A stretch of DNA of 54,688 bases from a virus (Duplodnaviria > Caudoviricetes): positions 1 through 54,688 of IMG/VR virus record IMGVR_UViG_3300042485_001890; one strand, given 5' to 3'. The notes beneath the pieces are model-generated. The model was not told the DNA's origin. It searched no databases and saw only the letters and a list, made by a program, of their open reading frames with translations. Below, piece by piece: positions 1 to 24,030 of the stretch (position 1 is its first letter; every line of letters starts with the position of its first letter). The position numbers were made by a program, and so were the translations under genes.

Positions 1-28
1 TTATACTGACGTAATTGATATTGCTCAC
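1..28 (-). CDS. 5' end of next structural-operon gene (partial; MSNINYVSI...)
   Basis: GTG overlapping the TGA stop of the 877-aa gene (CCGTGA); frame runs off the window edge. Confidence 0.4.
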
Positions 29-2658
29 GGTAATTTTTCTCCACGTTGCGGAAATGCTAGATATTTATTCTCAATGACACCGTCCAGCACATCAATCAGA
101 TATCTATCTGCGGTGAAATTTATTGATTTGAAATCAAAGTTGGCCTGCTTTATTCTAGAAATTATCTTGGCTCCTGATCCAGGTTTACTGTAACAAAGAA
201 CTAGAGCTTTGACGTATCCGGCTTCCACAAACGCTTGATTTTGTATACTTCTCATCCATAGTGGAAGGAATGTGCGGTCTCTTTCTCCTAGAGTTTTTAT
301 ACGACTTCGCATATTTTTAAAACTGTTGGGAAATACTCTTTGATGATCACTGTCGCTGATCAAAGGAATATTGCTGTCGATCTTTATGGTGTCATAACTT
401 ACAAGCACCTTGCTGTTGATGTTGTCGGAAAGCTCTACTGTTTGACTGATGCTTTTGCCATTTTTTTCAAATTCGTCCACAACTTCTACATAAACTGCTT
501 CATACAAAGTTTCTTGTGTAAGAGGATCTTTGGCTTCCGCATACTGTAGATCACCAAATCGTATCTGTTTACGATAGTGATTTCGACTCATGGCCTGTAC
601 ATAATTCACAGCTTCAACACTTTCAATTCCAGCAAACACCAGTATTTTTAATTCTGTTTGGATACTAAAATTGATATCACCGGGTCTATATAAATCATCG
701 GATCTAAATATATTGTTATCGGTAATAAAATTAAACCAATTTAATCTTTTTTCCTTGGTCTGAAATGCTTTGAGATATAAGTTGGCAAAGGTTTTTGTGT
801 TGTCTGCCACCACCAGCATTGTGAATGCTTTCACTGACTCTGCAAAATTTGCAGAATCTTTGGCCACAATTTCAAATTTAAAAGTTTTGTCAAAGCTGGT
901 GTTGTTGTCAAATGCTGGAGTATAGTCTCTAGACAATGTAGAACTATCTTCACCGGGATTCAAACTGTCAGTTCTTTCGTAAAATCTAGTGAGTCCAGGG
1001 CCGTTTTCGTCACCAAATTGTTTTACCTTGCCTATTATTATACCTGTAGACTGAAAGTCTAGTCCAGGCGGCAATGTGCCTGAGGCAATTTCATAGATTA
1101 CTCTGCCACCGTATCTCAAACTCCTAGCTTCCACAAACTTCTGACTGGGTTGATTGGGAACTATGGTTCCTAGATCACCGTCGGATATCCACTCTATACT
1201 GCTTTCAATTTCACCAATGATGTCTATACTGAATATTTTTTCAACAGTTGAAACACCCTTGGTCCAATATATGCTGTCCAATGCATCTGGAAATTGATTT
1301 CTACTGGCCTGCACAGCTATGTAGATAAAATCTCCATACCTTACGGCCTGTCCTATGGTATAGTTGAAAGTAGAACTCCAACTGCCCAGCAACACTGTGT
1401 AGACCAACGAGGACAGAGTAGCAGGATAATTAATGGCCTGTACGGTAAATTGATACGTTTTGGTTACAGCACTTTGATAAGGCACCCGACCAGCTATTTC
1501 ACCAGTGATAGAATCAATCACCATGCCCGGAGGCAGTTCACTCACAGTTTCCGGTATGATCACAGTCCAGTCATCGGGATCATTGGTTCTAATATTTGAT
1601 ACTGGAAAGTACACAGTTTCTGAACTAAGTTCCCATCGGCCAGTGGTAATTATTTCACCGGTATCTTTGTATCTGTAGGTACCACCGTTGGTAGGCAAAA
1701 ATATATATGTAATAGTGCCGGCAAGTGAAGGAGGATCATAAACATCTAGATAAACTGTGATGTAGTTATTGGCTCTTCGTCTACCTAGATTGCTTTCGGT
1801 GATCCATATTGGTTTACGATCACCTGTGGCATCCGCTCTGAACAGATTGGTATCGATCTGTAGTATACTGTTGTCTGCCTGCAAGAATTCTTCAGTGACT
1901 ACCCAAATCCTAAACAATCTTCTTATTTCGTTCTCACCGTCTGATACCGCAACAATAAACGTGTAGAATCTACTTAGGCGTCTAGGAGTTTGACTGGCTT
2001 CGGTGTAACCATAGGTGACATTGTCATAGAGATAGGAATCAAATCCGTTGCTTTTGGCCTCTGCTACATCCAGTGCTGTGATATCAAAGGCTTCGGTATC
2101 ATAACCTCCCGGTCCTGCGACGTCAAGAGCAAACACCGGATCAGTAAATCCAAATAGTCTTCCTTGACGTGTTAGTGTTAGACCAGGAGGTAATTCTCCA
2201 CCTGACGGCACAAGATAGTATTCAAGTACATCTCCGATGCTTTCATCTGTGTCTTCTGCTTCAAGTTGAAAATCCACAAAGGCATTATCAAGAACAAAAT
2301 AATTTTCACCTGAACCTACATTCAAGAACCCTTCTTTGGTCAACCAAGCTGGTTCATCGGAACCGTCAACATCGATACTGAAAGTTCGATCTTCAATGTC
2401 TTCTCCGTCGTCTGCACGAATTACGAATCTGCTGACTGTGTATTTTTCTACTTCTGTAGGACTGCCCTTGATAAACACCGTGCCCTGAGAACTATCTGTG
2501 GCAACCACTGTGTCTAGTCTTAGCCCTCTAGGCAATGAGCCTGCCAGCAAGGTAAATGTAATAGGACCAACATCGGATGTTGCTTCTAGAGGAATATCTA
2601 GAATAATCCTTTCGGTTACTATGCTTATTCTGCCAGCTGGAGTAATCCAAGTAATCAT
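25..2658 (-). CDS. virion structural protein with putative Ig (He_PIG-like) repeats
   Basis: 877-aa ORF; repeated G.LPPGL.L...G.I.G motifs typical of putative Ig domains; structural operon context. Confidence 0.7.
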   Translation of the reverse strand: MITWITPAGRISIVTERIILDIPLEATSDVGPITFTLLAGSLPRGLRLDTVVATDSSQGTVFIKGSPTEVEKYTVSRFVIRADDGEDIEDRTFSIDVDGSDEPAWLTKEGFLNVGSGENYFVLDNAFVDFQLEAEDTDESIGDVLEYYLVPSGGELPPGLTLTRQGRLFGFTDPVFALDVAGPGGYDTEAFDITALDVAEAKSNGFDSYLYDNVTYGYTEASQTPRRLSRFYTFIVAVSDGENEIRRLFRIWVVTEEFLQADNSILQIDTNLFRADATGDRKPIWITESNLGRRRANNYITVYLDVYDPPSLAGTITYIFLPTNGGTYRYKDTGEIITTGRWELSSETVYFPVSNIRTNDPDDWTVIIPETVSELPPGMVIDSITGEIAGRVPYQSAVTKTYQFTVQAINYPATLSSLVYTVLLGSWSSTFNYTIGQAVRYGDFIYIAVQASRNQFPDALDSIYWTKGVSTVEKIFSIDIIGEIESSIEWISDGDLGTIVPNQPSQKFVEARSLRYGGRVIYEIASGTLPPGLDFQSTGIIIGKVKQFGDENGPGLTRFYERTDSLNPGEDSSTLSRDYTPAFDNNTSFDKTFKFEIVAKDSANFAESVKAFTMLVVADNTKTFANLYLKAFQTKEKRLNWFNFITDNNIFRSDDLYRPGDINFSIQTELKILVFAGIESVEAVNYVQAMSRNHYRKQIRFGDLQYAEAKDPLTQETLYEAVYVEVVDEFEKNGKSISQTVELSDNINSKVLVSYDTIKIDSNIPLISDSDHQRVFPNSFKNMRSRIKTLGERDRTFLPLWMRSIQNQAFVEAGYVKALVLCYSKPGSGAKIISRIKQANFDFKSINFTADRYLIDVLDGVIENKYLAFPQRGEKLP

Positions 2659-2667
2659 TGGTTGTCC

Positions 2668-3216
2668 TTATACCAATGTGCCAAGATCTATGTTAAATGG
2701 TCCAGGAGTAGGGCAAGTGCCAAAGTCCACATTGGCAGCAGCTGATAGCACCTGCAGAGCTGTAGTATATTGATTGCCAATAGGGCCAAAATCAAAACCT
2801 AATAGCAATGCATTTAGATCCAAGTTGGTATCAACAGTGATATATGGAGTAGATCCAGTGACTGTGATATTGCTGCCACCTTGGATGGCAATATTGGTAT
2901 TATCTCCTGCCTGTACTATTCCTGCATTAGTGGTAATGCTGGTAAAAGCGTCCGGCTGTGTGGAACGAATTTCAATACTGTTGTCGTATTCTGTGACAAC
3001 AATTTTTGTACCAGATACCAAATTTCTAAATTTTAATATGCTGCCTGTTTTTTCTTTAAAAACTTTAGCGCCTAATTCTTGAGTATTTGCAGCAGTTAAA
3101 TCAAAGGTGGTTAATAGTTCTGCAAAGTTGGCATTGACTTTTTCAAAGGCCGTGCGTAGATCATCGCCTAGTCCGTCGTTTACTTGATTACCGATATTGA
3201 TTGTTTGTATGGCCAT
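2668..3216 (-). CDS. baseplate/tail-associated protein with T4 gp9/gp10-like N-terminus
   Basis: N-terminus INIGNQVNDGLGDDLRTAFEKVNANFAEL; TAAATA upstream. Confidence 0.7.
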   Translation of the reverse strand: MAIQTINIGNQVNDGLGDDLRTAFEKVNANFAELLTTFDLTAANTQELGAKVFKEKTGSILKFRNLVSGTKIVVTEYDNSIEIRSTQPDAFTSITTNAGIVQAGDNTNIAIQGGSNITVTGSTPYITVDTNLDLNALLLGFDFGPIGNQYTTALQVLSAAANVDFGTCPTPGPFNIDLGTLV

Positions 3217-3237: not shown

Positions 3238-3756
3238 TTACCGTTTATCAGTATCCAAACCTTGTGTGGCTAATAACTCTAGTATCTGACCTTGCACTGC
3301 GGGATCTTTGATACCCTGATCTACACATTTAGCCCAGGCAAAGTTGGTTAACCAAGTGCCCATATATAAATCATCTACTGCACACCAGTGGGTAATCTCA
3401 GGATGCTGATCTAGCCAAGCTGTGATTTCACCAGCCCGCTGTTCGTGATATGTGGCTGCTCCGGGCAACCACGCAGTATAGGCCAAGGGCATTTTTTCTA
3501 TGCCCTGTTCCTGATAAAATTCACACATTCCACTCAGGGTGGTTTCTCGTTTCCAATCACTAGAGATCACTATCTCAGCACCTGTTCGCTGTATGATATC
3601 ATTCAACACAGCTACCGCATCAGGATCAAAGTCGCTGAAAAAAGTTATACCCGTGTCAGCAAATTCATCTGATGTGGGCATACTGAACTCAGTTCTTGTA
3701 ACAGGCTTGGGACTCAAACACAGTACACCGTAGTGATCCAAGAATAACACTTTCAT
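3238..3756 (-). CDS. HAD-superfamily protein (Swiss-Army-knife RNA-repair type)
   Basis: VLFLDHYGVL, IVISSDWK, RAGEI..WL and WCAVDDL motifs. Confidence 0.75.
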   Translation of the reverse strand: MKVLFLDHYGVLCLSPKPVTRTEFSMPTSDEFADTGITFFSDFDPDAVAVLNDIIQRTGAEIVISSDWKRETTLSGMCEFYQEQGIEKMPLAYTAWLPGAATYHEQRAGEITAWLDQHPEITHWCAVDDLYMGTWLTNFAWAKCVDQGIKDPAVQGQILELLATQGLDTDKR

Positions 3757-6700
3757 ACGCTCTCAGTTTCTTTCTCAACTTCTAATGACAGCAACCATTG
3801 GATATGAGTTTCAATCTCCTCAATGCTTTGTGTTTGTTCAGCCAATCTAAATCCTTTGTATAATCTTTCTTCAACATTTGGATAATCATCTGCGGTGCGT
3901 AGTGTTCTGCTGTCCTTGACAAACTTCATATCTGTGATAGGATATACATTATTATAACGCATACTGGTTAGAATTGAATTGGCAAATAGATTCATATGAT
4001 AGTCTGTCATCACATTATAGAACTCAACCTCACCCACAATCCATTCTTTGCTGATCAGCGTGATTTCTTCACCTTGGTCATTGAATGTGGTTGTTCCTAT
4101 TGGAGTCTCTGGCATTGAGCCGTATGTGAACTTGCCAGCTTCTTTATTGAAAATTCTATGTGCTTTTGGTGAATCACCAACAATTTGCAATTCGCTGTGA
4201 TCACTGAATGTTAGTAAGCAAGACACCACTGCGGTCTGTGTTTTCTTGATCCATATAGGTTTGGCCGATGCAAACTCTCCAAGATCAAAGTCCCAGACCA
4301 GAATGTCGTCATTGTATGTGATATTCTCCACAGCCACCCTTGACATATCCGCCATGGTAATCAAGGTGCCTCTTACCAAGCAAGGATTTGTTCCTTCACC
4401 TGCTATTGGTGCACCATAACCAGTGCCTGATGCATTTGTGGCAAACGGAGTGAATATATAAGTGTCGCCGGGGGTGGTGTAGGTTGCAACGGCCACAATA
4501 TCAAATGATCCTGTGCCTGGAGATCCAGACAGGGTAATTCGGCTGTTGGCTGGAACAGACACTCCTATCACAGTAACACCAACAGCGGTCACTTCTGTGC
4601 CGCTGGCCACAGTGAATTGCACCTTGGCGTGGGCCGCACCATCAACCCCAACGGCTCCAGTGGTAACCACAGTGGGTATACTAGTGCCACCGCCTAATAC
4701 ACTTGCACCTGTGCTGTCAACAATATCACCACCTACTGGCAGTGTCAGTTCACCATCTGCACCAAATCGCCAATTAAATGTACTGCTGTCCGGAGTGTCT
4801 ATGGTGATGTCAATGTTGGTAGAGGATTTAATACCACCGTCATTGGGTAATGTTAAAGTACCATCGAGGCCAAAGGCCCATTGTTTATCAGTTACTTCTA
4901 CTACGATACCTCCATCACTGGAGATGCTGAAAGCCTGCAACGCTTGTATGCGGCAGTTATTACCGCCAAACCATATTGGACCACCATCTGGCAGTGTTAG
5001 ATCACCATCGGGGCCAAAGGTCCAACTGTGTTCTGGAACTGGACCAACATCACCTGTAATGATTTGCACAGTGCCTGTACTGGGCGCAAACAAACTGTTG
5101 ACTATTACAGTCGCAACAGCCGTTGCGTTTTCGGCATCGTTTATCCATTGTAAAGCGGCAGCACCACTTGTGCCTTGTGATAAAATGCCTACTGTGGTAT
5201 TAACACTTCCCTGGATGCCTTCAGCACCTTCGAGGTATCCCATGGTCATGCCACTTGGGAATGTTAAGTTGCCATCCTCACCAAACTGCCAACGGTGCAG
5301 AGTTGAGTCTGACAGGTTGATGTCAATGTTGATGGCACCTTCGCTACGGATATCGCCTGGTAGTTCTAGACCACCGTCGCCTTGAAACTTCCAATCATGG
5401 CTAACTGTCGACATGCTATCTGTACGATCAAATGATCTAATGGTTAGGCCACTGCGATATTCATCCTGCCAGTTTAGTTTAATCTGTGCTCGTTCGTCAC
5501 TGTCACCTTCACCATCTGGATCACCACTGTAGGCTCGAATAAGTTGTGTGGTATCGTCGTCAACCTCTACATTGATCCAACGCATTGAAGTTGTGCCATC
5601 GCCGCAGTCTTGTACAAATCTACCACCATTTGTACCAGTGACAATATCATCTGGTGCTGTTAGTATACCAGTCTGTCCAAAGTTCCAAGTATAGCTACTG
5701 CTATCTTCACTGTTGACTGTGATGTTGATGTCATTGTTACTGGTTAGACTATCGCCTGTGCCACCACCCAATACTGAGTTGCCTTCACTGTCCTTGATGT
5801 CACCACCTGTGGGCAGAGTTAGATCTCCAGCACCGTCGAACTGCCAAACTCGCTCGTTATCACCTTGATTGGTGAGGATTCGTACTGGGGCAGCATAATT
5901 TCCACCGTTCTCTGTGTAAGCACGAACAGTTAGGCCATCTTCGTCTTGTCTAATCCTACTGTTAACACCGCCAGCAACCGCGCCGTAGTCCCATACGATA
6001 CCTCTATTAACACCGCCAGTTTCGCCGCTGAATGTTGCATTACCTGTTGCGGAAAGTGTAAAGGTTTCTGTGCCGTTGACTAAACTGGAACCACCTCCGC
6101 CACCTAGTACACTAGTGCCTGTGCTGTTCTTGATATCTCCACCTGCTGGCAATATTAGATCACCATCTTCTCCAAACTGCCATCTACGCAGTGTTGAGTC
6201 TGTGAGGTTGATGTCAATGTTGATGTTGCCTTCACTGCGGATATTACCACCACCACTCGGAAATGTCAAAGCACCAGGCAATGTTAGACTACCGTTATTG
6301 TCAAATGACCAAGTATGATCACTGAAATCACTAGGATTTCTTACCTTTATAGCAACTCCTGATCCCCAGGTTGAAAGACTAAGGTCCTCGCCTGCAAAAA
6401 TCTCTGCAATGTTTGGCAGTGATAATTTCGAAGAGTATACAGCCTCTTCGCCCTCCCCAGTTATAATTTCTTCAAACTGGTATTGACTTTGACTTCCAGT
6501 GTGTAGTGAACCATTAAAATATATACTACCTGTTGATAATGAACCAGTGGCTGGCAGTGTTAATGAACCGTCTGAGCCGAGGCTAACTGTGTTGGCACCG
6601 TTGACCAATCTATCAAAGCTGGTAGGTATAGTGGGCTTGTTGGTCAAGTCTGTGTAACTTATAGTGCCAACAATGCCTGCGGACTGCACTATCCATTTAA

Positions 6701-6791
6701 CACCGTCCCAGGTGTAGGTTATGCCGTTGTCGCCAGTGTATTGTGTTGCATTTGCCACTAGCCCTGAGTTTGGAAAATTTAATATTGCCAT
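3753..6791 (-). CDS. tail fibre protein with C-terminal Hint autoprocessing domain
   Basis: 1012 aa; repeated W.F..DG.LTLP modules; C-terminal CLVRGTLITMAD...HRIF...FYNVMTDYHMNLFANSILTS. Confidence 0.75.
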   Translation of the reverse strand: MAILNFPNSGLVANATQYTGDNGITYTWDGVKWIVQSAGIVGTISYTDLTNKPTIPTSFDRLVNGANTVSLGSDGSLTLPATGSLSTGSIYFNGSLHTGSQSQYQFEEIITGEGEEAVYSSKLSLPNIAEIFAGEDLSLSTWGSGVAIKVRNPSDFSDHTWSFDNNGSLTLPGALTFPSGGGNIRSEGNINIDINLTDSTLRRWQFGEDGDLILPAGGDIKNSTGTSVLGGGGGSSLVNGTETFTLSATGNATFSGETGGVNRGIVWDYGAVAGGVNSRIRQDEDGLTVRAYTENGGNYAAPVRILTNQGDNERVWQFDGAGDLTLPTGGDIKDSEGNSVLGGGTGDSLTSNNDINITVNSEDSSSYTWNFGQTGILTAPDDIVTGTNGGRFVQDCGDGTTSMRWINVEVDDDTTQLIRAYSGDPDGEGDSDERAQIKLNWQDEYRSGLTIRSFDRTDSMSTVSHDWKFQGDGGLELPGDIRSEGAINIDINLSDSTLHRWQFGEDGNLTFPSGMTMGYLEGAEGIQGSVNTTVGILSQGTSGAAALQWINDAENATAVATVIVNSLFAPSTGTVQIITGDVGPVPEHSWTFGPDGDLTLPDGGPIWFGGNNCRIQALQAFSISSDGGIVVEVTDKQWAFGLDGTLTLPNDGGIKSSTNIDITIDTPDSSTFNWRFGADGELTLPVGGDIVDSTGASVLGGGTSIPTVVTTGAVGVDGAAHAKVQFTVASGTEVTAVGVTVIGVSVPANSRITLSGSPGTGSFDIVAVATYTTPGDTYIFTPFATNASGTGYGAPIAGEGTNPCLVRGTLITMADMSRVAVENITYNDDILVWDFDLGEFASAKPIWIKKTQTAVVSCLLTFSDHSELQIVGDSPKAHRIFNKEAGKFTYGSMPETPIGTTTFNDQGEEITLISKEWIVGEVEFYNVMTDYHMNLFANSILTSMRYNNVYPITDMKFVKDSRTLRTADDYPNVEERLYKGFRLAEQTQSIEEIETHIQWLLSLEVEKETESV

Positions 6792-7514: not shown

Positions 7515-10500
7515 TTATGTTAGTCCTGTTCCGTTAATGTACCAGGTAGTGGCAGCTACCTTGACTGCTGTGGCCATACCGTTGGCCGCCAGTGTTCTTG
7601 TGCCAGTGCTGGTGCCACCCGCCAATCTCAGTGTGTCTGAGGTAATAGCAATAGTCACTGTGGTAGCACTTGGTCCAGCAATGAATGTAAGAGTGGTTCC
7701 TATTGGATAGGCCACTGATGCGGCTGCTGGAATGGTTATGGTCTGGCCTGTGGTTGTTACATAAATGTGTTCGCCAGCATCTGCTATGGTCAATGTGGCA
7801 GTGGTTGAAACTGCGCTTGCCGGGATACCTAGATAACCAGCACTTCTGGCTGTGCTGGCAGTGGTAGCTTCTGCTAGGGTGTTGATCACCACACCACCAG
7901 TGCCATTGCATTCTATTTCAAGATTGGCGTTTGTGACCGTTGTGCTGATTCTATTGCCCACAACAGTGATCTGATCCGTGTTGAATGTTTCAGCAGTGAC
8001 ACTATTACTGTATGAAACTTCTTTGGTACTGTCGTTGTATTGCAATACTCCACTGGTAGCACTGATATTCCTAATTGGTGCCACTTTGAATGTATTAGGT
8101 ATAGATTGATTCAACACACTGCCAGTGGCATTTAGAACGATTGAGTTAGCGGCTTGACCATTGTAGCCGGCAGCATAACCAATGGCCACAGAATTGACAC
8201 CTTGTTCACCGCCGCCAGCATAGTAACCAATAGCCACTGCGCCAGCACCTTGACCGGTATTACCAGCACTTACACCAATGGCCACTGTGTTAGCACCTTG
8301 AAGGCTGAGGCCAGCTGCATTGCCGATGGCTACAGCATCAACACTTTGTGAAGTTTCACCAGCACTTACACCAATGGCCACTGCATTTTGTCCCTGACTA
8401 ATAAGTCCAGCAGTGGTGCCAATGGCTACTGAGTAGGCACCTTGAGTAGTTTGACCAGCAGCATTACCGACAGCCACCGCGCCACTGCTCTGGCTGGTGA
8501 GCCCTGCTTGCGAACCAAATGCCACAGCATCGCCAGCTGTGTCTTTTATCACAGCACCATTTGTTAGTGTGATACTACCTGGCAATGTTAAACTGCCATC
8601 GTCACCAAATGTCCATTGTTTTGATGCTCCATCAGTATTGGTCCTGATGAGTATATTTGTTTGAGCGTATAACTCAGCAGATACCGACCCCATATACAAT
8701 GCAGTAGTATCATCACTAGTACTTGTTAGATATGCAACGTTGGCGTAAGTAGTAAAGTCTAGTTTAGCATTTCCTAATCCACTAATCGGTCCTGGTACTG
8801 TTAACTCACCATCTTCCCCAAAATGCCATCTACGCAGAGTTGAATCTGCAAGGTTAATGTCGATGTTGATGTTGCCTTCACTGCGGATATCACCTTGAAC
8901 ATAGTTGATTGTGATATTGCCTTCTGCATCACTGGCAGTGGTAATACCTCCTGCACCCGTAAACTTGATGAGTTCGTTGTTGCTGATTACTCTCTGTGTG
9001 GAATCATCTCCTGCCACACTGAACGAGAATGCTTGGGCTGCGGTGGTCTGTGTTGTGCCGTCTGGGAATGTTATTGCCAGCGTAATGTTGTCTTCTTCTA
9101 TGCCAAAGGTCCACCCATTAAATGCTACAAGAGGTTCGCTACCGTCACCTAGATCATTAGTAGCTCTTTGTCCGATCTTAAAGCTATTGTTGTCTAATTC
9201 AGTTAGGTATTCACTGATCAGTGTTGACTCACCCTCACCTAATGTATTGATAACTTGGAAGGAGCTGAGAATTCCGTTGGTGCTAACTTCAAATAGAGAT
9301 TGACCTGTTAGTGACGGGCCACCTTCGCCAAGACTATTAGTAACTCCGTTTGTGATAACTGTCTTTGATTGAGATACTTCAAGTTGACTTCCGCTGCCCT
9401 CTTCATCACCGGCAACATAATTGCTAATTGTATTACCGGCAATCTTAAGAACACCGTTAGGGAATGTTAGATCCCCATCTTCACCGAACTGCCATCTGCG
9501 CAGAGTTGAATCTGCCAAGTTGATGTCAATGTTGATGTTGCCGTTGCTCTTGATATCACCTGGTATGGTCAAATCACCTGCCGTGTCAAACTCCCAAATC
9601 TTGTTAGTCGCATTGGGGGTGGTTATTTGTATTTTACCGTTAGTGGTAGTACGCACATTGTGATCGTCAGTGCCCAAGAAGATACTGGTTTCTGTTAAAT
9701 CGCCTGTGGTCAAGTGTAGGTGATGATCACCTCCTACATATGAAGGTGCGTCACTGTTGATCAAACCTGATTCAACGCCTATACTTTCAGGATCGTAATT
9801 ATCTTCTTCAGGTGATACACGAATAGTAAATTCGTAGTCATCACTGTCAACGAGAATACTAAAGTCACCGCCGCTGCCGTCTAATGTTACTGTACCAGAG
9901 TCTGGATCAGCGATGCCAGCACCTTCTGGGTAGATCCACCAGTATAGTGTTTGATCAGCATATGTATCTGAATAAACATAGAAAGTAAGAGTATCACCAA
10001 CTTGAGCAGTATTGACATAATAATTTATTTCTATGCCGTTGTCAGTGTAGATATACGAGCCGCCGCCTTTAATTACTAACTTTTGGCTGGCTACCTCTGG
10101 GCTTGCTGGTGTAAGTTGAATAGTGGGATTGCTGGTAACAACGCCTTCTGAAATAACTCCGCCAGTTGGCAGTGTTAGGTCACCGTCCGCTCCAAACCGC
10201 CAATTGAATGTGCTGCTGTCCGGAGTGTCTATGGTGATGTCGATGTTGGTAGCGGATTTAATTCTACTGTCATCAGGCAGGATCAAGGTGCGGTCTGTGT
10301 TAAATGTCCAAGTTTGAGAGGGATCTTCAGCATTATCAACTAAGACTAGGTTGATTTCTTTGGTGTTGCCTTCATTCCATACACTGATATAAGAACCGTT
10401 TGCTGATTGAAGTTGCACCAGTCCATCACCTTCAATAGCCAGTTGATTTTCTGAAACGATAGCCTGTGCATTGACTTTGAAATTGCCAGTTGATTCTTGC

Positions 10501-11309
10501 ACAACCGAATAAGCACCGTTGACCAGACTGGAAGGTATAGTTCCTGTGATAGTAATATTGCCTTCTGCATCACTGGCTGTGGTGACTCCGCCTGCACCTA
10601 CAAACTTGATGACTTCATCTGCAGATATTAATCTCTGTGTTGAATCATCTGCAGCCACTGAAAACTGATATGTGCCGCCCAGGTTGGGCTTGTTGGTTAG
10701 GTCGTTGTAACTGCCGCTGAACAAAGTAGGTTTGTTGGTTAGGTCGTTGTAACTGGTGATACCTACACCATCTACGGGACTGGCATCAACCCAACTAGCA
10801 TCATAATAAACATATGTTCTGCCCGATGCAGTGTCATACCATAGGTCGCCTAGACTAGGGTCTGCTGGAGCAGTTGAACTGGTAGTTACACTAGATCCTC
10901 CGCCACCTGTTACTAGACTGCCATCGACCAATAGATTGCCGCCGGCGTCTACAGATAATGCTATGCCACCTAGGAAAATTGTGTTGTTGCTGACATACAG
11001 ACTGCGCCAAGGCAATGTTGAACTACCTAGATCGCCACCATTGGCCACACTAGGCAACATATCTCCGCCAACTGTTAAGTTACTGGTTATGGTGGTTGCT
11101 TGATCAATCACAACGGGTGTGCTGTCAGTGGTACTGATAGTACTACCAGTGAATTCAAACGCACCAATATTTAAATTAACATCCGCATTTATTCCCAGTG
11201 CTGTGTAAAGTTCTGTGAAGTTAGCATTGACTTTTTGGAACGCGGCTCGTAGGCTATCGCCTTTCTTGTCGTTAGCTGTGGTACCTACATTAATATTCTG
11301 TTTTGCCAT
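7515..11309 (-). CDS. long tail fibre protein with YadA-like head repeats
   Basis: gp10-like N-terminus (NDKKGDSLRAAFQKVNANFTELY); about nine AVAIG..AG...Q repeats; modules shared with 3753-6791. Confidence 0.75.
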   Translation of the reverse strand: MAKQNINVGTTANDKKGDSLRAAFQKVNANFTELYTALGINADVNLNIGAFEFTGSTISTTDSTPVVIDQATTITSNLTVGGDMLPSVANGGDLGSSTLPWRSLYVSNNTIFLGGIALSVDAGGNLLVDGSLVTGGGGSSVTTSSTAPADPSLGDLWYDTASGRTYVYYDASWVDASPVDGVGITSYNDLTNKPTLFSGSYNDLTNKPNLGGTYQFSVAADDSTQRLISADEVIKFVGAGGVTTASDAEGNITITGTIPSSLVNGAYSVVQESTGNFKVNAQAIVSENQLAIEGDGLVQLQSANGSYISVWNEGNTKEINLVLVDNAEDPSQTWTFNTDRTLILPDDSRIKSATNIDITIDTPDSSTFNWRFGADGDLTLPTGGVISEGVVTSNPTIQLTPASPEVASQKLVIKGGGSYIYTDNGIEINYYVNTAQVGDTLTFYVYSDTYADQTLYWWIYPEGAGIADPDSGTVTLDGSGGDFSILVDSDDYEFTIRVSPEEDNYDPESIGVESGLINSDAPSYVGGDHHLHLTTGDLTETSIFLGTDDHNVRTTTNGKIQITTPNATNKIWEFDTAGDLTIPGDIKSNGNINIDINLADSTLRRWQFGEDGDLTFPNGVLKIAGNTISNYVAGDEEGSGSQLEVSQSKTVITNGVTNSLGEGGPSLTGQSLFEVSTNGILSSFQVINTLGEGESTLISEYLTELDNNSFKIGQRATNDLGDGSEPLVAFNGWTFGIEEDNITLAITFPDGTTQTTAAQAFSFSVAGDDSTQRVISNNELIKFTGAGGITTASDAEGNITINYVQGDIRSEGNINIDINLADSTLRRWHFGEDGELTVPGPISGLGNAKLDFTTYANVAYLTSTSDDTTALYMGSVSAELYAQTNILIRTNTDGASKQWTFGDDGSLTLPGSITLTNGAVIKDTAGDAVAFGSQAGLTSQSSGAVAVGNAAGQTTQGAYSVAIGTTAGLISQGQNAVAIGVSAGETSQSVDAVAIGNAAGLSLQGANTVAIGVSAGNTGQGAGAVAIGYYAGGGEQGVNSVAIGYAAGYNGQAANSIVLNATGSVLNQSIPNTFKVAPIRNISATSGVLQYNDSTKEVSYSNSVTAETFNTDQITVVGNRISTTVTNANLEIECNGTGGVVINTLAEATTASTARSAGYLGIPASAVSTTATLTIADAGEHIYVTTTGQTITIPAAASVAYPIGTTLTFIAGPSATTVTIAITSDTLRLAGGTSTGTRTLAANGMATAVKVAATTWYINGTGLT

Positions 11310-11310: not shown

Positions 11311-13359
11311 TTACGCTCCTATGCTCACGCGGTGTATTGCTAGTCGACTACTACTCGATATGTCAACAGGTCCACCACTGACTTGTCTTATAGCAACTCT
11401 AACAGCATCTCCTGCAGAGGCCGGCATTACAGTTGAGTAGTGTAGATAACTGCCAGTCCAAGAACCATTGAAAATTACAACCGCTTTAGTGACATCAAGG
11501 TTAGTATCTATAGTAAGAAAGCTACCCGGGTTTAATGTTACTGTGGTTGAGAAATATACTGACATGTTGATCTGATAGTAACCTGTGTATGGTACTGTAA
11601 ATGTTCCAGTACTATACGAATTAGCAGTGTCAACTGTGTCAACAAACTGTATAAATGAGGCACTTGCTCCGTCGTTTACTGTCTGCGTAGTTGTTGTGGC
11701 AGCAATTACTGTAACAGGACTATAACTTTTTAGTACACTACCGTCACTGAATGTAATACCATTAGATACAGTAAGCTCGTTTTCTACATTGACATCGCTA
11801 CTAAAAATTGTTTTAGGAGTAACAGTAATTGCTGAACTGTCTGCTGAATCAATCAATGATGTAAAAATATTTCCAGTAAACGTACCGCTAAGTGTGCCGC
11901 TTACTGATCCTAATGCGGAATTATACGTAACTTCTTTTGTACTAGAATCGTATTGTACAATGCCGCTTGTGCCAGTTTGATTTCTAACGGGATTAACATA
12001 GAAACCAGCCGCTGGTGCATCTAGTGTAAATCCAGATGCGTTAATTGCAATGGATCCTGAAACAGCTGACGGATACCCTGCTCCATTGCCTATAGAAATA
12101 GCGTAATCGCCTTGACCTGCACCTGCGGCGGCTCCGATAGCAACAGCACGATTCCCTTGATTAACATTGCCTGCACCAGAACCAATAGCAACAGCGTAGT
12201 CTCCTTGATTAAATCCACCTGCTACGATTCCGATAGCAACAGAGTCTAAACCTTGCAGTCCGTCGCCCCCTGCGCCTATACCTAGTGTTACTCTTGAATC
12301 TGATGTTCTTAATGTTGTGGCTTCTATATTACCGTAGATTGTGGCAGAGTTGCCATCTATGATCTGCGAACTATCATCTGCAAACACTGAACCTATAAAA
12401 TTTCCTCTCAGTACACCGTTAGTAGCATCTACCAACATGGTAGAGTCATCTGCAAACACTGAACCTCTGATATCTAAATTGCTGTTTACACTGAATGTTA
12501 GTGTATCTGTTGCAGTGTCTTTGGTAATTGTTAGTCCGTTACCGGATATCAAATTCAGTGTATCTGAAATATTGTCAGCTGCCACTGGCTGTAAGGTAGC
12601 ACCGTCTACAACAATAAATCTAAATGTTGGACTTGCTGGCGCCAAATTGGTAATGGTTACTATTCCTGTGCCATCACCAGTTACACCGATCTGACTAGCA
12701 GTTCCTACGATCTGTTTGACACCAAGATTGGTCAGGGTCACACTACCTGAAGCAGCACTTACTCCGATGCCACCTGCTGTGCCTGCCAAACTAGTAACGC
12801 CCAAATTGGTCAATGTCACTGTACCAGTTGCAGCACTGACTCCGATCTGCCCCACAGTACCTGCAAGGCCTATTACACCACTGTTGGCAATTGTTAGTGT
12901 GTCAGTAGTGGCATTGGTAGTCAATGTTATACCACTGTTGCCAGCTGCCACAGTCAGTGTATCTACCACACTGTCTGCCACAATATCCGACTGTCCTGCC
13001 ACTGAGAAAGTTTTAAAAGCTGTGTTTGCAGGATCTATAATCAGTTGTCCGTTTATAGTGGTACCCGATGGCAGATTTAATACACCTGCTAGATTGGCAG
13101 TTATCTGAGCTGAGCCAAGATATAAACTTGAACCAGCTAGATAAAGATCTCTCCAACGAGCTGTCGGGCTACCTAGATCATAAACTTCGCTAGCACTGGG
13201 CTTGATATCAGTGCTAAGACTGGTAAAGTCTAGTACTCCTCCCGGTCCCCCTATGCTACCGTACAGTTCATCAAAGTTGGCATTTATTTTTGTAAATGCT
13301 TCCTCTACTGTGCTCCATACAATTGGAGGACTGCCTGCGTTTAGTGTCTGTTGTGCCAT
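11311..13359 (-). CDS. tail fibre protein, YadA-like repeats and C1q/TNF-like C-terminal domain
   Basis: AFTKINANFDELY N-terminus; G/T-rich shaft; VAIG repeats; TGTFTVPYTGYYQINMSV C1q-like motif. Confidence 0.7.
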   Translation of the reverse strand: MAQQTLNAGSPPIVWSTVEEAFTKINANFDELYGSIGGPGGVLDFTSLSTDIKPSASEVYDLGSPTARWRDLYLAGSSLYLGSAQITANLAGVLNLPSGTTINGQLIIDPANTAFKTFSVAGQSDIVADSVVDTLTVAAGNSGITLTTNATTDTLTIANSGVIGLAGTVGQIGVSAATGTVTLTNLGVTSLAGTAGGIGVSAASGSVTLTNLGVKQIVGTASQIGVTGDGTGIVTITNLAPASPTFRFIVVDGATLQPVAADNISDTLNLISGNGLTITKDTATDTLTFSVNSNLDIRGSVFADDSTMLVDATNGVLRGNFIGSVFADDSSQIIDGNSATIYGNIEATTLRTSDSRVTLGIGAGGDGLQGLDSVAIGIVAGGFNQGDYAVAIGSGAGNVNQGNRAVAIGAAAGAGQGDYAISIGNGAGYPSAVSGSIAINASGFTLDAPAAGFYVNPVRNQTGTSGIVQYDSSTKEVTYNSALGSVSGTLSGTFTGNIFTSLIDSADSSAITVTPKTIFSSDVNVENELTVSNGITFSDGSVLKSYSPVTVIAATTTTQTVNDGASASFIQFVDTVDTANSYSTGTFTVPYTGYYQINMSVYFSTTVTLNPGSFLTIDTNLDVTKAVVIFNGSWTGSYLHYSTVMPASAGDAVRVAIRQVSGGPVDISSSSRLAIHRVSIGA

Positions 13360-16300
13360 TAGTTTCTTCCCACGGCCACTTCAATAGTGCCAATATGATC
13401 TGAATCGTAGTTCTCTAGTGCTTTGCCAATCACTGTGCCTGTTCTAGCATCGCCGCCTGCACTCACAGCACAGCCTGCAATGTTGCTGGCAATCAGCAGA
13501 TCCCCTTTCTCAATCTTTCCAACTACACGACAAGGCACCCTACCCTGTAGAGCCACTTGATTTTTAAATCCTGGGCAATCACCATTCATGGAATAGGCAG
13601 CATTATCGCTCACGACGCCAGCCACTCTATGATCACCTTGTCGATTGGCTATAGTGACTTCTTTGTCGCCGCCAAATATCAACACAGTGCCCACAGCATA
13701 CTCTCGATCGCCTTCGTAGTATTCTGCCAAATCCGCAGCGTAAGTTGCTTGGAATCTGCTGGAGCCATCCAGTGACCAATAGCCTGTAATCGTACCCGGA
13801 GTTGTTATACCACCTGTGCTGATACTGGTACAACTTTTTAATGCTGCTACACTGATACCGGTAGAATCAAGAGTGGCAAATGTTGTGGCACTGTCTTGAC
13901 TGCGGAATATGTGTTGTGTGTTGTTGTAGAAAGTTTTCTTATCATTGGCTGGTACTGTACCATCACCTATGAAAATACCCACTTGTCCCAAGAAACCATA
14001 GTACTGAAGAAATCCTCCAGTACCGCTGGCATTGCTATCAACAGATAGTATACCGTCGATTTTAAGCTGCGAAAGATCAACGTTACGTGCAGCAAAATCT
14101 CCGTTACTATCACGTTTTACCAAGGTGCTCGCAGTGTTTGATGAAGCTTCGTCAACAATACTATACGCCCAACTTGCACGAACGGTGCCATCTCCGCCGG
14201 TGTGTCGTAGATAGCCAGTAGTTGTGGCGCTGCCGTAATCTGACAGTCTCAGAGCCAAACCTTCATCAACCACAGTGGCAAAAGTCACTTCAGCAACATT
14301 GGCTGTTGAAGCTGAACTGTTGCCCAGCAGTCTATCTGCTCCAACCTGCGCCAATTTACTCAGCGCCAGACCGTTGTCTTTGACTGTGACCCAACCGTTG
14401 GTCAGTGTGAATTGCGCAGTATCAAAACTTGATATACCTCGCAGAGCTGAGACAGTACCACTTATGCCGGATCCTGTAGTTGTGCTGCTATAGGTTACTG
14501 TAGTGGTATTACACGCCAAAACAGTATGAGTTCCGTTGTATCCACTCACGGTTAATCCTGTGACTACAATTTTTTGTCCTGCTGTAAACGGAGCACTGGA
14601 CTGTGCTGAAGGGAATGTGATAGTGGCCACAGAACCGCTGCCAGTTGCAGTGATGTTGGTAATACTGGCTGATATGGTAGCATAGGCATTGTTCAAACTC
14701 AATTTGGCCTGATCAATAGCCGCTGTGGACATGATATTTGCATCGTCAATGACACCATCACTAATGGTAGTTCTTATGACGTTGGTTGTGCTGTCACCTA
14801 GCAATATGTCAAAAGTAACTTCGCCTGTGGGTGTCACATTGATAATGGTGTTACCTGTGCCATCCAAGGTTAACAATTGTCCCGATTGTGACTGTGTAAA
14901 GTTAAACAGGTTGGTTCCGTCTGTGTCTTTGAGATTGTTAATGGTTATGCTGTCCAGTCTGGCAGCATCACTGGCTAATGTAGGCACCCCAAGATTTTGA
15001 ATCTTGTACGAATTCATATCCATGTTAGCAGGTCCAACCCAAGGCAAATCTCCGCTGAGAGCCATGAATCCCACATTGTTAGGCACACGATCGCCTAGAG
15101 CAATAACGTTGCCATTGAAATCTAATCCCAGCCTACGACCAATATAGGTTCTAACTGCTGATTCTGTAGGCACCGCATCAACACGACCTTCGTCCATTGC
15201 TGTGGAGAATTCTGAAATAGTTGTACCACGTTTAAATCCTAGTCCGTCTAACTGACTCAGGGCAATACTAGCAGAGAATGTAACAGTGCCAGTACCCTGA
15301 TCAACTCTAAAGAATGGCCCCACGTTAAAGTTACCAAATTGGTCAGTGGTCACAAAGAATGTGCGACCCGAACCTCGTTCTTGCATCTGAGCACGTAGTA
15401 CCACTTGCCCTGTTTCAGTATCCGATTGCGTGGCATATGTCGGTACTGAAATAATTGAATTGACGGGCGGCCCGTAGATCTCACTAGGATAGTTAGTATC
15501 GGCATAGCCGCCTGTACCAATTTCCAATAGATCGTGTGATGTCACACGAGTCAAACTGATCCTAATAGTTAGTGTACCATCAGTCAGCGCACCTGGTCCT
15601 GGAGCTGATCCTTTGAGAGTAGGCGGATCATTGAATCTTACCACACTGCGTACTAATGCTGGACTGACTGTCAGCAGTGCATAGTCTTGAAGAGTTGTAT
15701 CACTGTCTTGATAATTGGTTATTTCGTATTCTTGGCCTTCGTGAACAAATCTATAAAATGTACCAGCAGCTATACCAGTTAGCAATCTATTGCCGTCACT
15801 GCCGCCTAGATTTCCTATACCAAATGTGGTATCACCACGTTCACCTTGAATCAGTTTGTAGGAGACAGTGGTGCCGGATGTAGTGATATCTAACACGCTG
15901 CCTTCTAGTTGGAAAGCTATCGTTCCTGTTGTGGCTGCTGTAGAAGACTGCACCACAATGCTGTTGGTAGCTGCAGAAACAGAATAAATCACTGAGTCCG
16001 CACCTAATGCGCCTGTACCACCAGTAGCTATGACACCACCGCTGTCTGTAGCAATGGTTGCGCTGGCAAATGTCACAGTGGTATTGGTACAGGTCACCAC
16101 GGTTTGTGCGCCATTGAATGGCACACCACCTACAGCAAATGCGCTCACAGTAATCAACTGGAATGGCAAATATGGAGGAACGTTTTGTGCAGCAAATGTC
16201 AATGTGCAGGTGGTACCGTTACCTACCGCAGTCACGCCGGTGATGTTTGGTCTTGTGACCAAACTTGACCCTAATACAAAATTTTCCAAGCAGGTGATAT

Positions 16301-19300
16301 CTGTAATAGTTGTAAAATAAGGACCTGCACCAGTGGACACTCCCAGTGTTGGTCCTACTGCAAATGCTAAAGCAGTAGGTACACCTATAAATGTGCTGTC
16401 TATCAAAGCTCTGGTACTGACACTGAAATCATTAGCAGTCAGCCCAGCTGTAATCACAAAGTATACTGTGTTTACAGTCAAACCTCCGGGCAACACACCA
16501 GCACTGAATCTTACAGGTTGACCAGCTGTGAGTCCGTGACTGTTTTTGGTAAACGTATTGGCCACTGTGCTTACACTGGTCACAGCGTTGGCTGCTCCTG
16601 TTTCTACCCCGGGCTCATACACAGTGATTTCTATGTAATCATAATTTTCTCTACCCTGTGCCAAGGCCAATCCATACGGAACCATAGTGGGACTTCCCGA
16701 CACTGCTGAACCAGTAAATGTGGTTATGCCTGCACCTGTTGCTGTAGCAGAAATAGTAAATGTTGTGGGTGTCGGCGCAGCCTTGACATAATATATGACA
16801 CCGTCGTCGACTGTGACACCTGCAGTAATTTCGTTGGGTAACACTGCGCCTGGAGGTTTAACAAATCTCACTTGATATCCTGCACGCTGTCTATGATTGA
16901 TATCAGTTGTTATAACTCCAGTGCCATAGTTTATACCTGTGACAGTATAGGTTTCTAGATCATATGTTTCATCATAGTTTGTGAATTCCAATTGCCTATA
17001 GACAAAATTACTGTCATTTATTATCAAAGCAGTACTAGGTCTAGTTGCTACTTCTACTATGTCTCCGTGTAACACATGAAAGCTGTTGTTTCTAACAGTG
17101 ACACGTTGTCCATGCGGTACTGCTGCTACAAGACCACCACCTGTGCTGATATTTAATTTTGCACGTTTGGTAGCAACGTCGTTGATCTGTGCCGTAGTGA
17201 TAACGTATCGTACAATTTGACCGCCATGATTGATTTCTAATTCACTGGATGGCAAAGGAAAGAAATCATCATAATTTACATATAATATGTTTTCTCCTTT
17301 TTCGTTCAATGTGTCAACTGTGGCAGCAAAAACTGTGGCAGTCTGCGCAAGATCAGTATAAAATCCAGTAGGAGTTGGAACTTCCAATGGATCACTGGCT
17401 TCTGCTACCAATGCAAAGTTTCCGTGAGCACTGGATCCACCTACACTTCTAATCTGTCCACCATTCAATGAATAGTAGGAAATTTGACAGTAGTAGGTAA
17501 ACATACTGACAGCTTCAGCTAGACCGCCGTTGGTAGTTATAAGACCGTAGCCTAGATCACAAACTTGTGTAAAGTCGTTGCTGAGCATGGAACGATTACC
17601 GGGCGTAAGAACTTCAAACACTCTGATAAAGCTGTGTACACCTGTCCCTGCACCCACAAAAGTTACTGCTGTGGTACTGCCAGCCACTGCGGCTACTCTA
17701 AATTGAGTAAGAGTAAATCCAGCCAGCAACACATAGTATTCTTGATTGGCAGCAATACCAGTTGGCAATGTTCCAGTGGAACTGAATTTTATAATAGCAC
17801 CTGGTTGTAGTTCGTGAGCAGATGCGGTAGTTATATTTGGAGTACTAAATGTACAGGTAATTGATCCAGCAGCAGGGGTGTAAGGTGTCAGTTCGTCCAA
17901 TATAAATTGAGCGGTACTAAATCCCCCTGTGGTGGATGTGGCAGCACCTGTTCCAAATGTATATCCTCTGATGTAGTTTATTCTGTAAATTTCACCACTG
18001 ACAATGAAACTGCAAGGCGTATTAGGAGGTCTCAGCAGTCCTGATACTCGTAAAAATATATTACTGTCTTTGCTGTCTATGACAAATTTCTGATTGCCTG
18101 CGAATCCATCCACAAACATACCGCCGGCAAATGTTTTGGTATTTACACTTCTACTAAAAGACGCAGATTCTTGACAGTACGGAGATTTTGCAAGAATCTG
18201 TCCCTCTGGGTCCAAGACCATTGAAAATCCACCTTGACCCTGGAAGGTCATGGCTCTTAGGATCACAGCATCGTTACACAAGAACATGTCCATATCGCCA
18301 TTGTCTTTGGGATAGTTTACTGCTCCACTGTTGCTGATAACGTCAACTATGGCATTGGTCAACAGTGTGATCACAGTGTCGGATCCTACTTCTGCCACCA
18401 AACCTTCGTCTAGAGTCTGTAGTGTTGGTACTGTGGCGGTAGTGGCCACACTACCGGACAATGTATATAATATTGCAATATTCACATTGTCGATAATGTC
18501 TTGGGCCAAGGTGTTGATGCGCTGAATACCTGCCACAGTCTGAGACAGTTGCGCACCAATAGCCAAGGCAGGATTACTGCCCGGAACTGCTGGTCCCTTG
18601 TATTTCAATGCAGCAGAAATTGTACGATTCTGGCCACTCCATTTCAAATCAAATACCATAGAGTCTATGATCAATCCAACGTCCCTATAACAGATATCTT
18701 CATTATAGTTAAATGCAGACGTAAATGGAGCAGTGTTTGTTGAAATTTGATTATTGATCCAACCTATGACCTGATCTTGAATAAACTTTCTGTTCAAAGT
18801 AATCAGTCGTGCAGCACTGGTATAGTTGCCTTTGTTATTGATCAACGGATAAACAGGCTGTGAAGAATCTGCTAGATAGTGATAACCGTACAGTTCGGTA
18901 GCCACAGTTAATCCGTCTACAATAGGATCTCGTCTAAAATTCAAAAATGCCCAGGGACTGGAACTATCAAATCCTATCTGTGGTCTAATAATAGTTCTGC
19001 GAAATTCATCGCCTATCACTGCAACGTTTTGAGGCACACGCAATGGTAGATTTTCTAGATAAATGCCAGTTTCCACGAATACCGAAATTTGAATACGTTT
19101 GGTTACATCGCCGAATGATATAGCTTCTGGATATCCTAAATCTCCAGGTTCTAAAAATTTTCCACTGATGATATCAACGTCAAATTCTTCGTTGCCGGAT
19201 GAGTCCAGGGTACCGTCGTGTGCTAGAATCTGCGCAAGGGCACCGGAAGTTTCTCCACGAAGATATAACCCTTCTCGTATGTCTTTGGCTGCATTAGCAG

Positions 19301-21156: not shown

Positions 21157-21472
21157 AACTTTCACCGCAACCACAGCGGTCACGTTCATTGGGATTGACG
21201 AAATCAAATCCCTCATTGAGTCCATTGCGGACCCAATCCATTGTTAGTCCTTTTAGATACACTAGGCTTTTGGCATCAACTAATATTACAAAGTCTTGTT
21301 GAACAAAATTAGTAACACCCTCTTCAGCAGTGTACTCGTCCACATACTCCAATACATAAGCCAATCCACTGCAACCAGTAGTTCTGACACCTATACGAAT
21401 GCCAACACCCTTGCCACGTTTTGCCAAGTTCTGTTTAATGCGTTTACTGGCTGTGTCTGTTACGATAATCAT
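21146..21472 (-). CDS. iscA: iron-sulfur cluster assembly protein IscA
   Basis: TTGCSGLAY and RCGCGESF motifs; likely start MIIVTD at 21472, overlapping the iscU end. Confidence 0.93.
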   Translation of the reverse strand: MIIVTDTASKRIKQNLAKRGKGVGIRIGVRTTGCSGLAYVLEYVDEYTAEEGVTNFVQQDFVILVDAKSLVYLKGLTMDWVRNGLNEGFDFVNPNERDRCGCGESFRV

Positions 21473-22362: not shown

Positions 22363-22367
22363 ACTTG

Positions 22368-22383
22368 TATTTACCGCTAAATA
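22368..22383. promoter_or_regulatory. back-to-back late promoters
   Basis: tattta at 22368-22373 and TAAATA at 22378-22383. Confidence 0.6.
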
Positions 22384-22404
22384 AATTCCTAAGGAGATTT
22401 CGAT

Positions 22405-24024: not shown

Positions 24025-24030
24025 ACTACT

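Follow-up and report, generated by a model that had tools for sequence, protein, structure and literature searches.

A conserved Hint domain with an accessory tail as a putative self-cleaving cassette at the C-terminus of fibre proteins in large uncultured viruses

The stretch of DNA analysed here (the window) has 54,688 bases and makes up the whole of IMG/VR record IMGVR_UViG_3300042485_001890, from a virus of the Caudoviricetes. The subject of the analysis is the C-terminal module of a protein of 1012 amino acids encoded in it, P0001 (open reading frame (ORF) 3753..6791 on the minus strand, by translation), which we infer to be a tail fibre from its gene context, its eight W.FG.DG.LTLP repeats and the N-termini of its relatives. 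In the predicted structure, residues 804-943 of P0001 form a Hint domain, the match being far beyond chance, and this domain is followed by a conserved tail. The reading preferred here, to which an even chance is given, is that the 209 residues 804-1012 are a self-processing cassette composed of a Hint domain of the BIL or Hog type and a folded accessory tail, which would act as a self-cleaving maturation cassette of the fibre. Judging from its relatives in sequence databases, the module forms a Hint subfamily of its own, marked by its tail and often accompanied by a HAD-like partner, and it is widespread in uncultured large viruses. The parts of P0001 and the gene that overlaps its end are the following.

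4383..6791, minus strand: fibre 'passenger', residues 1-803, from the ORF translation, with the eight W.FG.DG.LTLP-type repeats; the mature protein if cleaved.
4413..4679, minus strand: putative beta-rich domain before the Hint, residues 705-793, ending in ATN..GTGYG about 10 residues before Cys804.
4380..4385, minus strand: predicted scissile bond Pro803/Cys804, from the conservation of the Cys and the alignment with inteins and hedgehog.
3963..4382, minus strand: Hint domain, residues 804-943, ending in Leu-Thr-Ser943, from fold and conservation.
3756..3962, minus strand: tail, residues 944-1012 (69 amino acids), from conservation and AlphaFold2 (AF2).
3834-3962, minus strand: conserved core of the tail, residues 944-986 (43 residues), from conservation; a variable amphipathic helix follows.
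3753..3756, minus strand: ATGA overlap between the fibre stop codon and the start of the next gene, from the sequence; translational coupling.
3238..3756, minus strand: HAD-like gene, 172 amino acids (Pfam HAD_SAK_2, E = 6e-19; PHROG 1818).

Family libraries did not recognize the module. P0001 as a whole had no match in Pfam or PHROGs, and its last 215 or 315 residues gave nothing in Pfam, NCBIfam or PHROGs at the limits used; a FlgF match found with the whole protein, lying outside the module, was rejected as being at chance level (E = 0.031). Similarly, a single-sequence phmmer search against the Protein Data Bank (PDB) returned only matches at chance level (E >= 0.66). Given this lack of a family-library match, the Hint assignment rests on a sequence profile, the AF2 model and the comparison of structures, the first two being derived from an alignment of 35 relatives of the module (A1). 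The A1 profile, whose match in the window spans positions 3762 to 4679, reached the Hint domain of BUBL BIL2 from Tetrahymena in the PDB at E = 0.002, with blocks A, B and F/G covered and with HR of block B and N.FANG.L of block F/G paired in the alignment with 6tmm, followed by PI-SceI at E = 0.034. Moreover, the AF2 model of the module, tail included, had a mean predicted local distance difference test (pLDDT) of 93.7 and a predicted template modelling score (pTM) of 0.90. An earlier note on this DNA, made from the sequence alone, had proposed a Hint domain at this place and an AlphaFold comparison as a check, and this comparison bore the proposal out: Foldseek found 56 matches in the PDB at E <= 0.001, of which the 44 listed were all Hint domains of BILs, inteins or hedgehog. 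For chains of these three groups, VIA Z-scores of 12-18 were obtained over model residues 3-149; the main comparisons are given below, with the root-mean-square deviation as rmsd.

BIL2 of Tetrahymena (6tmm/6y75): Foldseek E 3.3e-10; VIA Z 18.4, rmsd 1.8, 141 aligned.
Ssp DnaB intein: Foldseek E 2.5e-6; VIA Z 16.5, rmsd 1.8, 135 aligned.
C. thermocellum BIL (2lwy): Foldseek E 1.8e-9; VIA Z 16.4, rmsd 1.7, 134 aligned.
gp41-1 intein: Foldseek E 3.7e-7; VIA Z 15.9, rmsd 1.8, 127 aligned.
Hedgehog (1at0): Foldseek E 2.0e-6; VIA Z 14.9, rmsd 1.9, 133 aligned.

The structural alignments by VIA-align also fixed both ends of the domain. Model residue 7, which is Cys804, aligned with residue 1 of the inteins and residue 258 of hedgehog, while model residues 147-149 fell on the ends of the inteins and on residue 401 of hedgehog, hedgehog 258..401 thus corresponding to model 7..148. 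Among the 35 relatives, matches below the Pfam thresholds were found to Hom_end_hint (16 relatives), Hint PF01079 (12), Hint_2 (5) and PT-HINT (3), and no existing family model matched the module family at its gathering score. For PF01079, the best E-value in the relatives was 4.9e-5, and P0046 scored 21.3 bits against a cut-off of 29.7, with no match to the module of P0001 at E <= 10. The Hint_2 matches were weak (best E = 0.016 in the five relatives; 1.7e-4 in P0217), with none in P0001.

The residues on which the earlier note had based its description were found where it had placed them. The translation confirmed that Cys804, in codon 4380-4382, begins CLVRGTLITMAD; the block-B-like His is His878, within KAHRIF (residues 876-881); and the segment FYNVMTD...LFANSILTS ends at Ser943, ILTS being residues 940-943. 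The domain ends in LTS followed by Met, with no His-Asn, and exactly 69 residues come after it. The key residues of the domain are thus Cys804, Thr809, His878 in block B and Asn926, Thr929, His932 and Asn934 in block F. Their conservation was counted over 300 distinct module sequences taken from 329 instances. In the A1 alignment conservation sets in exactly at the Cys, and an (A/V)T(N/T)..GT.Y-like motif also lies upstream of it in many rows. Cys1 was present in 294 of 294 sequences and the block-B His in 299 of 299, followed by the block-A Thr (291 of 294), with the Gly-Thr of block A ranging from 96 to 100%. The four block-F columns kept Asn, Thr, His and Asn in 294, 291, 287 and 296 of 297 sequences, respectively, and the domain end was L-T-S in 295-296 of 298 (Thr-Ser in 296). 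This strict conservation points to catalysis and not just to a scaffold, and the invariance of the Cys and the His argues for a real first step of the Hint reaction, the N-S acyl shift, in the module family. Other positions were more variable. The residue before the Cys was Ile in 124 sequences out of 294, Pro in 71 (P0001 included), Leu in 31 and Val in 28, and a Thr at -4 from the block-B His appeared in 252 of 299, P0001 having an Ile there and an insertion of 4 residues. Furthermore, the residue after Thr-Ser, which occupies the position of the intein terminal Asn and, from the VIA aligned ranges, that of hedgehog C143, was Cys in 193 sequences out of 298, Asn in 37 and Met in 36, the last including P0001 (Met944).

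The core of the tail was conserved to the same degree as the Hint domain. It has the consensus R(F/Y)NN(I/V)YPI.DMKF.KD.R ... GLRL.EQ, in which Asn948 (298 of 298) and Glu985 (297 of 297) were invariant, Tyr950, Lys959 and Arg982 were each kept in at least 99% of the sequences and Gln986 was also among the near-invariant residues, with variability found in the last, amphipathic helix of the tail. In the AF2 model, means over 10-residue blocks of pLDDT stayed at 93-97 through model residue 210, with helices predicted at 178-183 and 193-205. The tail of P0001 is hydrophilic, with a grand average of hydropathy (GRAVY) of -0.78, 23 charged residues out of 69 and a highest 19-residue mean of 0.05, so that no hydrophobic 19-residue stretch was found in it. 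No family match to the tail was obtained in Pfam, NCBIfam or PHROGs, and the tail searched alone in the ESM-Atlas gave scores of up to 0.91 to short fragments from Hint-bearing clusters, to be taken as leads only.

In Hint domains, Cys1 and the block-B His carry out the N-S acyl shift, and those that have no terminal Asn do not splice or cleave at the C-terminus; a nucleophile from outside then resolves the thioester, namely cholesterol in Hedgehog, while in BILs that cleave, and as a side reaction, this is done by water or thiols (PMC7765530, PMC9163320, PMC12054796). Even in Hedgehog, hydrolysis is known to occur as a side reaction (PMC9163320), and B-type BILs, which have the intein motifs except for the C-terminal one, cleave at the N-terminus (PMC7765530). 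Since the module of P0001 ends in L-T-S, has Met at the position of the intein Asn and holds no second Cys, N-terminal chemistry would be the only one possible; judged from the residues present, splicing and Asn-driven C-terminal cleavage are excluded, and an outside nucleophile would be needed. In the preferred reading, Cys804 would attack the carbonyl of Pro803, assisted by His878, to form the thioester, which could be resolved only from outside. Hydrolysis or thiolysis in the infected cell is judged the most likely outcome, and would yield a mature fibre of 803 residues with a free C-terminus and a Hint-plus-tail product of about 24 kDa that would be discarded. The module would thereby be a domain at the distal fibre end that aids maturation or assembly and can be removed. 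The earlier note had also suggested a possible cleavage at Pro803/Cys804; the basis of this stood, as the domain is a real Hint with the Cys and the block-B His and an N-terminal thioester is the expected chemistry, whereas the cleavage itself is a prediction from that chemistry.

The module was found in a large number of proteins. A phmmer search of 1.84 billion cluster representatives placed the family in 1707 clusters of 50% identity at E <= 0.001, 598 of them at E <= 1e-30, and the last 218 residues of P0001 had 306 relatives at E <= 0.01 in proteins of 556-1771 residues. A tblastn search of the module against 50,697 deposited phage records gave no match. In IMG/VR, 80 loci were kept out of 96 stretches with the module, and among the carriers were bins of giant viruses as well as genomes with terminal repeats, of 322, 355 and 572 kb. 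The family extends over marine, freshwater and gut viral contigs, with about 50% identity across them, and a Gaeavirus protein in BFVD carries the same module (48% identity, TMq 0.88). In species-representative genomes, 14 module loci were detected, all of them titled metagenome-assembled genomes (MAGs), with three on one contig of 453,797 bases. A single copy per genome was found in the five records that were searched whole. The three copies on the 453,797-base contig (L090, L091 and L092) contrast with these five records; the contig belongs to a gut bin titled Clostridia MAG and may be a very large phage.

Within the proteins, the module was nearly always C-terminal, with a median of 14 residues beyond the end of the model in 247 stored proteins, and the N-termini before it were unrelated (Mtd_N, YadA head, Chlorovirus glycoprotein repeat, B_lectin, Laminin_G_3 and He_PIG). 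Such a C-terminal position on unrelated N-termini is as expected of a generic maturation cassette. Other architectures were seen in P0219 (1052 amino acids), which has two tandem modules of Hint plus tail core (645-832 and 847-1041), in P0207 (1065 amino acids), in which the module is internal (498-698) and followed by DUF285 repeats, and in P0217, which carries a HAD domain C-terminal to the module.

A HAD-like gene is also the direct downstream neighbour of P0001, its start overlapping the fibre stop as ATGA. A homologue of this gene lay directly downstream of the module gene, on the same strand and abutting or overlapping it, in 38 of the 80 loci, a number that includes near-duplicate loci and does not count independent events. 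The junction recurred as ATGA, TTGA or GTGA in related loci (L002-L074), and in L074 the HAD lies in the same open frame as the module, this fusion ORF being 43% identical to P0217. In the window, the HAD motifs read FLDH.GV, SSDWK and DDL, with Tyr and not Asp at D+2; the homologues, in which the catalytic Asp is conserved, keep D7, S65/S66, K69 and D128/D129, and have Tyr, Gln or Gly at D+2. The AF2 model of the HAD-like protein had a pLDDT of 93.4 and weak matches to HAD phosphatase folds (best E = 0.046), the stronger of which include the capless HAD phosphatases KdsC, GmhB, MDP-1 and T4 Pnkp. As to the type of module, the HAD followed 26 of 36 modules with Cys after Thr-Ser, 3 of 13 with Met and 0 of 11 with Asn among the 80 loci, these being raw counts uncorrected for relatedness. 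An obligatory partnership was rejected, as the HAD was not beside the module in 42 of the 80 loci, where the downstream genes were variable. Furthermore, a HAD profile found nothing in G001, G003, G004 and G012 and gave a weak match elsewhere in G002; among the four near-complete module genomes, the HAD was missing in three and the fourth had a weak, distant match elsewhere.

Some of these observations weigh against a cassette that does no more than remove itself. To begin with the chemistry, Pro at position -1, as in P0001 and its clade, is in inteins a poor residue for the acyl shift. Moreover, conservation in the tail core equals that of the catalytic domain and includes polar residues that never vary, which exceeds what one would expect of a disposable spacer and would fit a region for adduct recognition or partner binding. 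In roughly half of the loci a HAD-like enzyme is fused or coupled to the module, and pure self-removal leaves this unexplained. Finally, the five records had a single module copy per genome, whereas chaperone domains are often present on several fibres. The evidence on the second step is split. Self-removal is favoured by the generic C-terminal location on fibres that are otherwise unrelated, the likeness of the structure to BILs, the hydrophilic character of the tail and the lack of a second Cys in P0001; a directed transfer is favoured by the conserved folded tail, the T-S-C seen in two of every three relatives and the HAD that is coupled or fused to the module.

Such a transfer, in the manner of Hedgehog, is the alternative that survives best, although it is considered unlikely. 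The thioester at Pro803 would be attacked by a specific nucleophile held in position by the tail core, leaving an ester or amide adduct by which the fibre would be covalently tagged or anchored, and the HAD-like protein, as part of the machinery, might prepare or present the nucleophile. The latter could be a small molecule from the cell envelope or made by the virus, a lipid or a sugar, or else an amine or hydroxyl group belonging to another protein or to the host receptor. The layout of the module, a Hint without terminal Asn followed by about 69 extra residues, is that of a Hog domain, and in the AF2 model the tail core, in which Asn, Tyr, Lys, Arg, Glu and Gln are invariant, packs on the Hint with high confidence. 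In addition, the Cys directly after T-S in 193 of 298 relatives takes the position of C143 of hedgehog (in SCYA) by the VIA ranges, a residue that forms a branched thioester attacked by cholesterol (PMC12054796), and the 12 relatives out of 35 with sub-threshold PF01079 matches, the 38 loci with an adjacent HAD and its fusion in two proteins point the same way. However, in P0001 the place of C143 is taken by Met, the offset of D46 showed no Asp (compared by eye only with the HhC sequence in PMC12054796), the hydrophilic tail has no motifs in common with the Hedgehog sterol recognition region (SRR), BIL domains and inteins are nearer in structure than hedgehog by VIA Z, and the HAD is missing in three of the four near-complete genomes. 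The Hog-like layout proposed in the earlier note holds as regards the missing terminal His-Asn and the conserved extra tail, which are Hog-like or B-type-BIL-like, and the proposal is weakened by the BIL domains being the nearest structures, by Met944 and by the hydrophilic character of the tail.

The same note had suggested that the product of a desaturase island in the window could be the adduct of the fibre. This link did not hold up: the island was rejected as a partner of the module on co-occurrence, and by the condition that the note itself had set, a lack of co-occurrence with the enzyme cluster, this part of its proposal is refuted. In a search for PF00487 in 14 module-bearing viral records, L045 being left out, matches appeared in three of them (five copies in G004, one in G007 and one in G010, a close relative of the window), and in none of the four records that are at least 90% complete; the proposed source of the nucleophile was thus absent in 11 of the 14 records. 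The desaturase island belongs to some lineages, not to the module. In the window it occupies 37105-47287, with seven FA_desaturase paralogues (39708-42722, 45171-45944 and 46535-47287), a Rieske protein (44353-45168) and an ATP-grasp protein (37105-38295), and its G+C content is 0.32-0.35, compared to 0.40-0.47 in the structural block. The five FA_desaturase genes of G004 (228,849 bases; locus L039) accompany a distant module with 43% identity, which implies that islands with several desaturases turn up repeatedly among large viral genomes, in some of them without any close relationship to the window.

A further alternative, which appears improbable, is that the fibre is not cleaved and that the Hint and its tail stay on it. 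They would be a tip that has a structural role or binds a receptor, or else a latent thioester 'warhead' that would react with a nucleophile of the host surface and so render adsorption covalent. The C-terminus of a fibre is usually its distal, receptor-facing end, and Pro at -1 may slow spontaneous cleavage; the single copy per genome in all five records searched whole and the compact, confidently folded AF2 model of the module would also suit a tip. On the other hand, about 50% identity over marine, freshwater and gut viruses on unrelated N-termini is unlike a host-specific receptor-binding tip, the invariance of the Cys and the His points to chemistry and not to binding alone, and a thioester equilibrium exposed over the lifetime of the virion would hydrolyse.

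Less probable still, and by our estimate very unlikely, is a release of payload in the style of the HINT domains of polymorphic toxins, in which cleavage would free the Hint-tail, or the Hint-tail-HAD, as a soluble factor and the fibre would be its carrier. A layout of stalk, HINT and C-terminal domain is described for polymorphic toxins, including stalks of phage tail-fibre repeats (PMC3482391); weak PT-HINT matches were present in 3 of the 35 relatives, HAD fusions exist, and P0207 has its DUF285 repeats after the module. Nevertheless, the tail is conserved and not polymorphic, it has no enzyme-like family match, there is no terminal Asn that could free a C-terminal domain from the Hint, and no immunity-like gene pattern was seen around the module, the downstream genes being variable where the HAD is absent. 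As for a decayed intein or selfish Hint remnant with no viral function, the Hint fold is shared by inteins, and inteins are frequent in large phage genomes, with many terminase and polymerase inteins among the BFVD matches listed, but no conserved host protein surrounds the insertion, no C-extein and no homing endonuclease are present, and 1707 clusters keep the catalytic residues and the tail, so that this explanation is close to refuted and extremely improbable.

Regarding the genomic setting, the record has a CheckV completeness of 10%, which at 54.7 kb implies a parent genome of several hundred kb. The ORFs around P0001 have T4 gp9/gp10-like N-termini and matches to baseplate-wedge and tail-fibre PHROGs, and because of these neighbours the virus that carries P0001, which is uncultured and marine, is likely a large T4-like myovirus. 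Four adjoining ORFs on the minus strand (2668-3216, 7515-11309, 11311-13359 and 13359-20798), the longest of 2479 amino acids, have in common the N-terminus MA.Q.IN.G..ND..GD..R.AF.K.N.NF.EL, which is matched by baseplate-wedge models of the T4 gp9/gp10 type in three of the four, 11311-13359 being without match. The N-terminus of P0001 is different (MAILNFPN...YTGDNGITYTWDGVKW) and is common to P0135 and P0162. Moreover, auxiliary genes were found at 21444-26363 and 32808-33473, encoding a NifU-like protein, an Fe/Mn superoxide dismutase, a UvdE UV endonuclease, a glycosyltransferase, an enzyme of the DAHP/KDO8P-synthase family, a 6-pyruvoyl-tetrahydropterin synthase and ThyX.

No description of a Hint domain as a standard C-terminal cassette of viral fibres was found in full-text searches of a library that leaves out about 1.7 million PMC articles and the subscription journals, and the existing labels of the module are automatic names, such as the 'Hint domain-containing protein' given to the Gaeavirus protein in BFVD. 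With no representative in the 50,697 deposited phage genomes, the module cannot have been tested in a cultured system so far. If the self-removal proposed here is true, fibre maturation would have a second solution with a chemistry of its own, and the module would be a self-cleaving tag made by nature. If, instead, the tail steers the thioester to a nucleophile, ligation of the Hedgehog type would be extended to viruses; this would be the first Hog-type ligation of a protein adduct outside eukaryotes, and a new way to modify or attach a viral adhesin.

Compared with the known systems, the module has the features of the Hint superfamily, that is, a horseshoe-like fold, the block-A Cys nucleophile and the block-B His. 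Its best structural matches are BILs, namely BIL2 of the BUBL1 locus of Tetrahymena thermophila (6TMM/6Y75) and the BIL of Clostridium thermocellum (2LWY), and BIL sequences were the only ones in the PDB that the family profile reached at E = 0.002. BILs are self-cleaving domains of variable, non-conserved surface proteins, the B-type being without the intein C-terminal motif (PMC7765530). However, the sequence identity to the module is just 17-19%, and BILs have neither the conserved tail of 69 residues nor the HAD partner. The solved construct of BIL2 is a C1A-N143A double mutant, BIL2 hence having a terminal Asn, whereas the module has none. A-type BILs carry a C-terminal His-Asn (PMC7765530), while the module of P0001 ends in T-S. 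Membership of the B-type would be tentative: its qualitative features (motifs A, B and F with no C-terminal motif, in variable regions of non-conserved proteins) are seen in the module, the Hint_2 matches being weak, in 5 of the 35 relatives and none in P0001.

Inteins end in His as the penultimate and Asn as the terminal residue, followed by Cys, Ser or Thr of the C-extein, a pattern that P0001 does not have, an Asn at the next position being found in 37 of 298 relatives. Furthermore, inteins are inserted in a conserved protein that splicing restores, while the module is C-terminal on unrelated N-termini. In the case of the Hedgehog Hog domain (1AT0), the likeness comprises the same fold, the C-terminal position, Cys1, the block-B His, the lack of an Asn at the domain end and some 70 additional residues after the Hint. 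The A-S-C(143) of Hedgehog compares with T-S-C in most relatives (PMC12054796 and PMC9163320), which thus share the Cys of SCYA, whereas P0001 has Met944 in its place. Of the TXXH motif (T69 and H72; PMC12054796), the His is invariant in the module, while the Thr is at -4 and not at -3 in 252 of 299 sequences. For the general base D46/D303, the Asp by which the sterol hydroxyl is activated, the family reads W-I-K at the same sequence offset, as judged by eye against the sequence in PMC12054796. The SRR of Hedgehog is described in PMC2362128 and PMC9163320 as a hydrophobic, dynamic helix-loop-helix with motifs K/L (HWY), unlike the hydrophilic and predicted rigid tail of P0001, which has no SCYA or HWY motif and for which no membrane or sterol context is evident.

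In its proposed role the module resembles the self-cleaving intramolecular chaperones of phage fibres and tailspikes (Peptidase_S74 type), which are C-terminal modules of many fibres that remove themselves after assembly (PMC8326128 and PMC10579305). The likeness is in the proposed role alone, since Peptidase_S74 is a helical trimer with a Ser-Lys dyad, while the module would use a Cys thioester in a Hint fold and has no Pfam match. The pretoxin HINT proteins, which have a HINT peptidase close to the C-terminus behind a fibrous stalk (PMC3482391), are similar in arrangement, but these have a variable toxin and an immunity gene, while the tail of the module is conserved, short and non-enzymatic and no immunity pattern was seen. 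By the features compared, the module is outside the intein, A-type BIL, Hog and PT-HINT families, and its mode of action would resemble that of a B-type BIL or a Hog domain.

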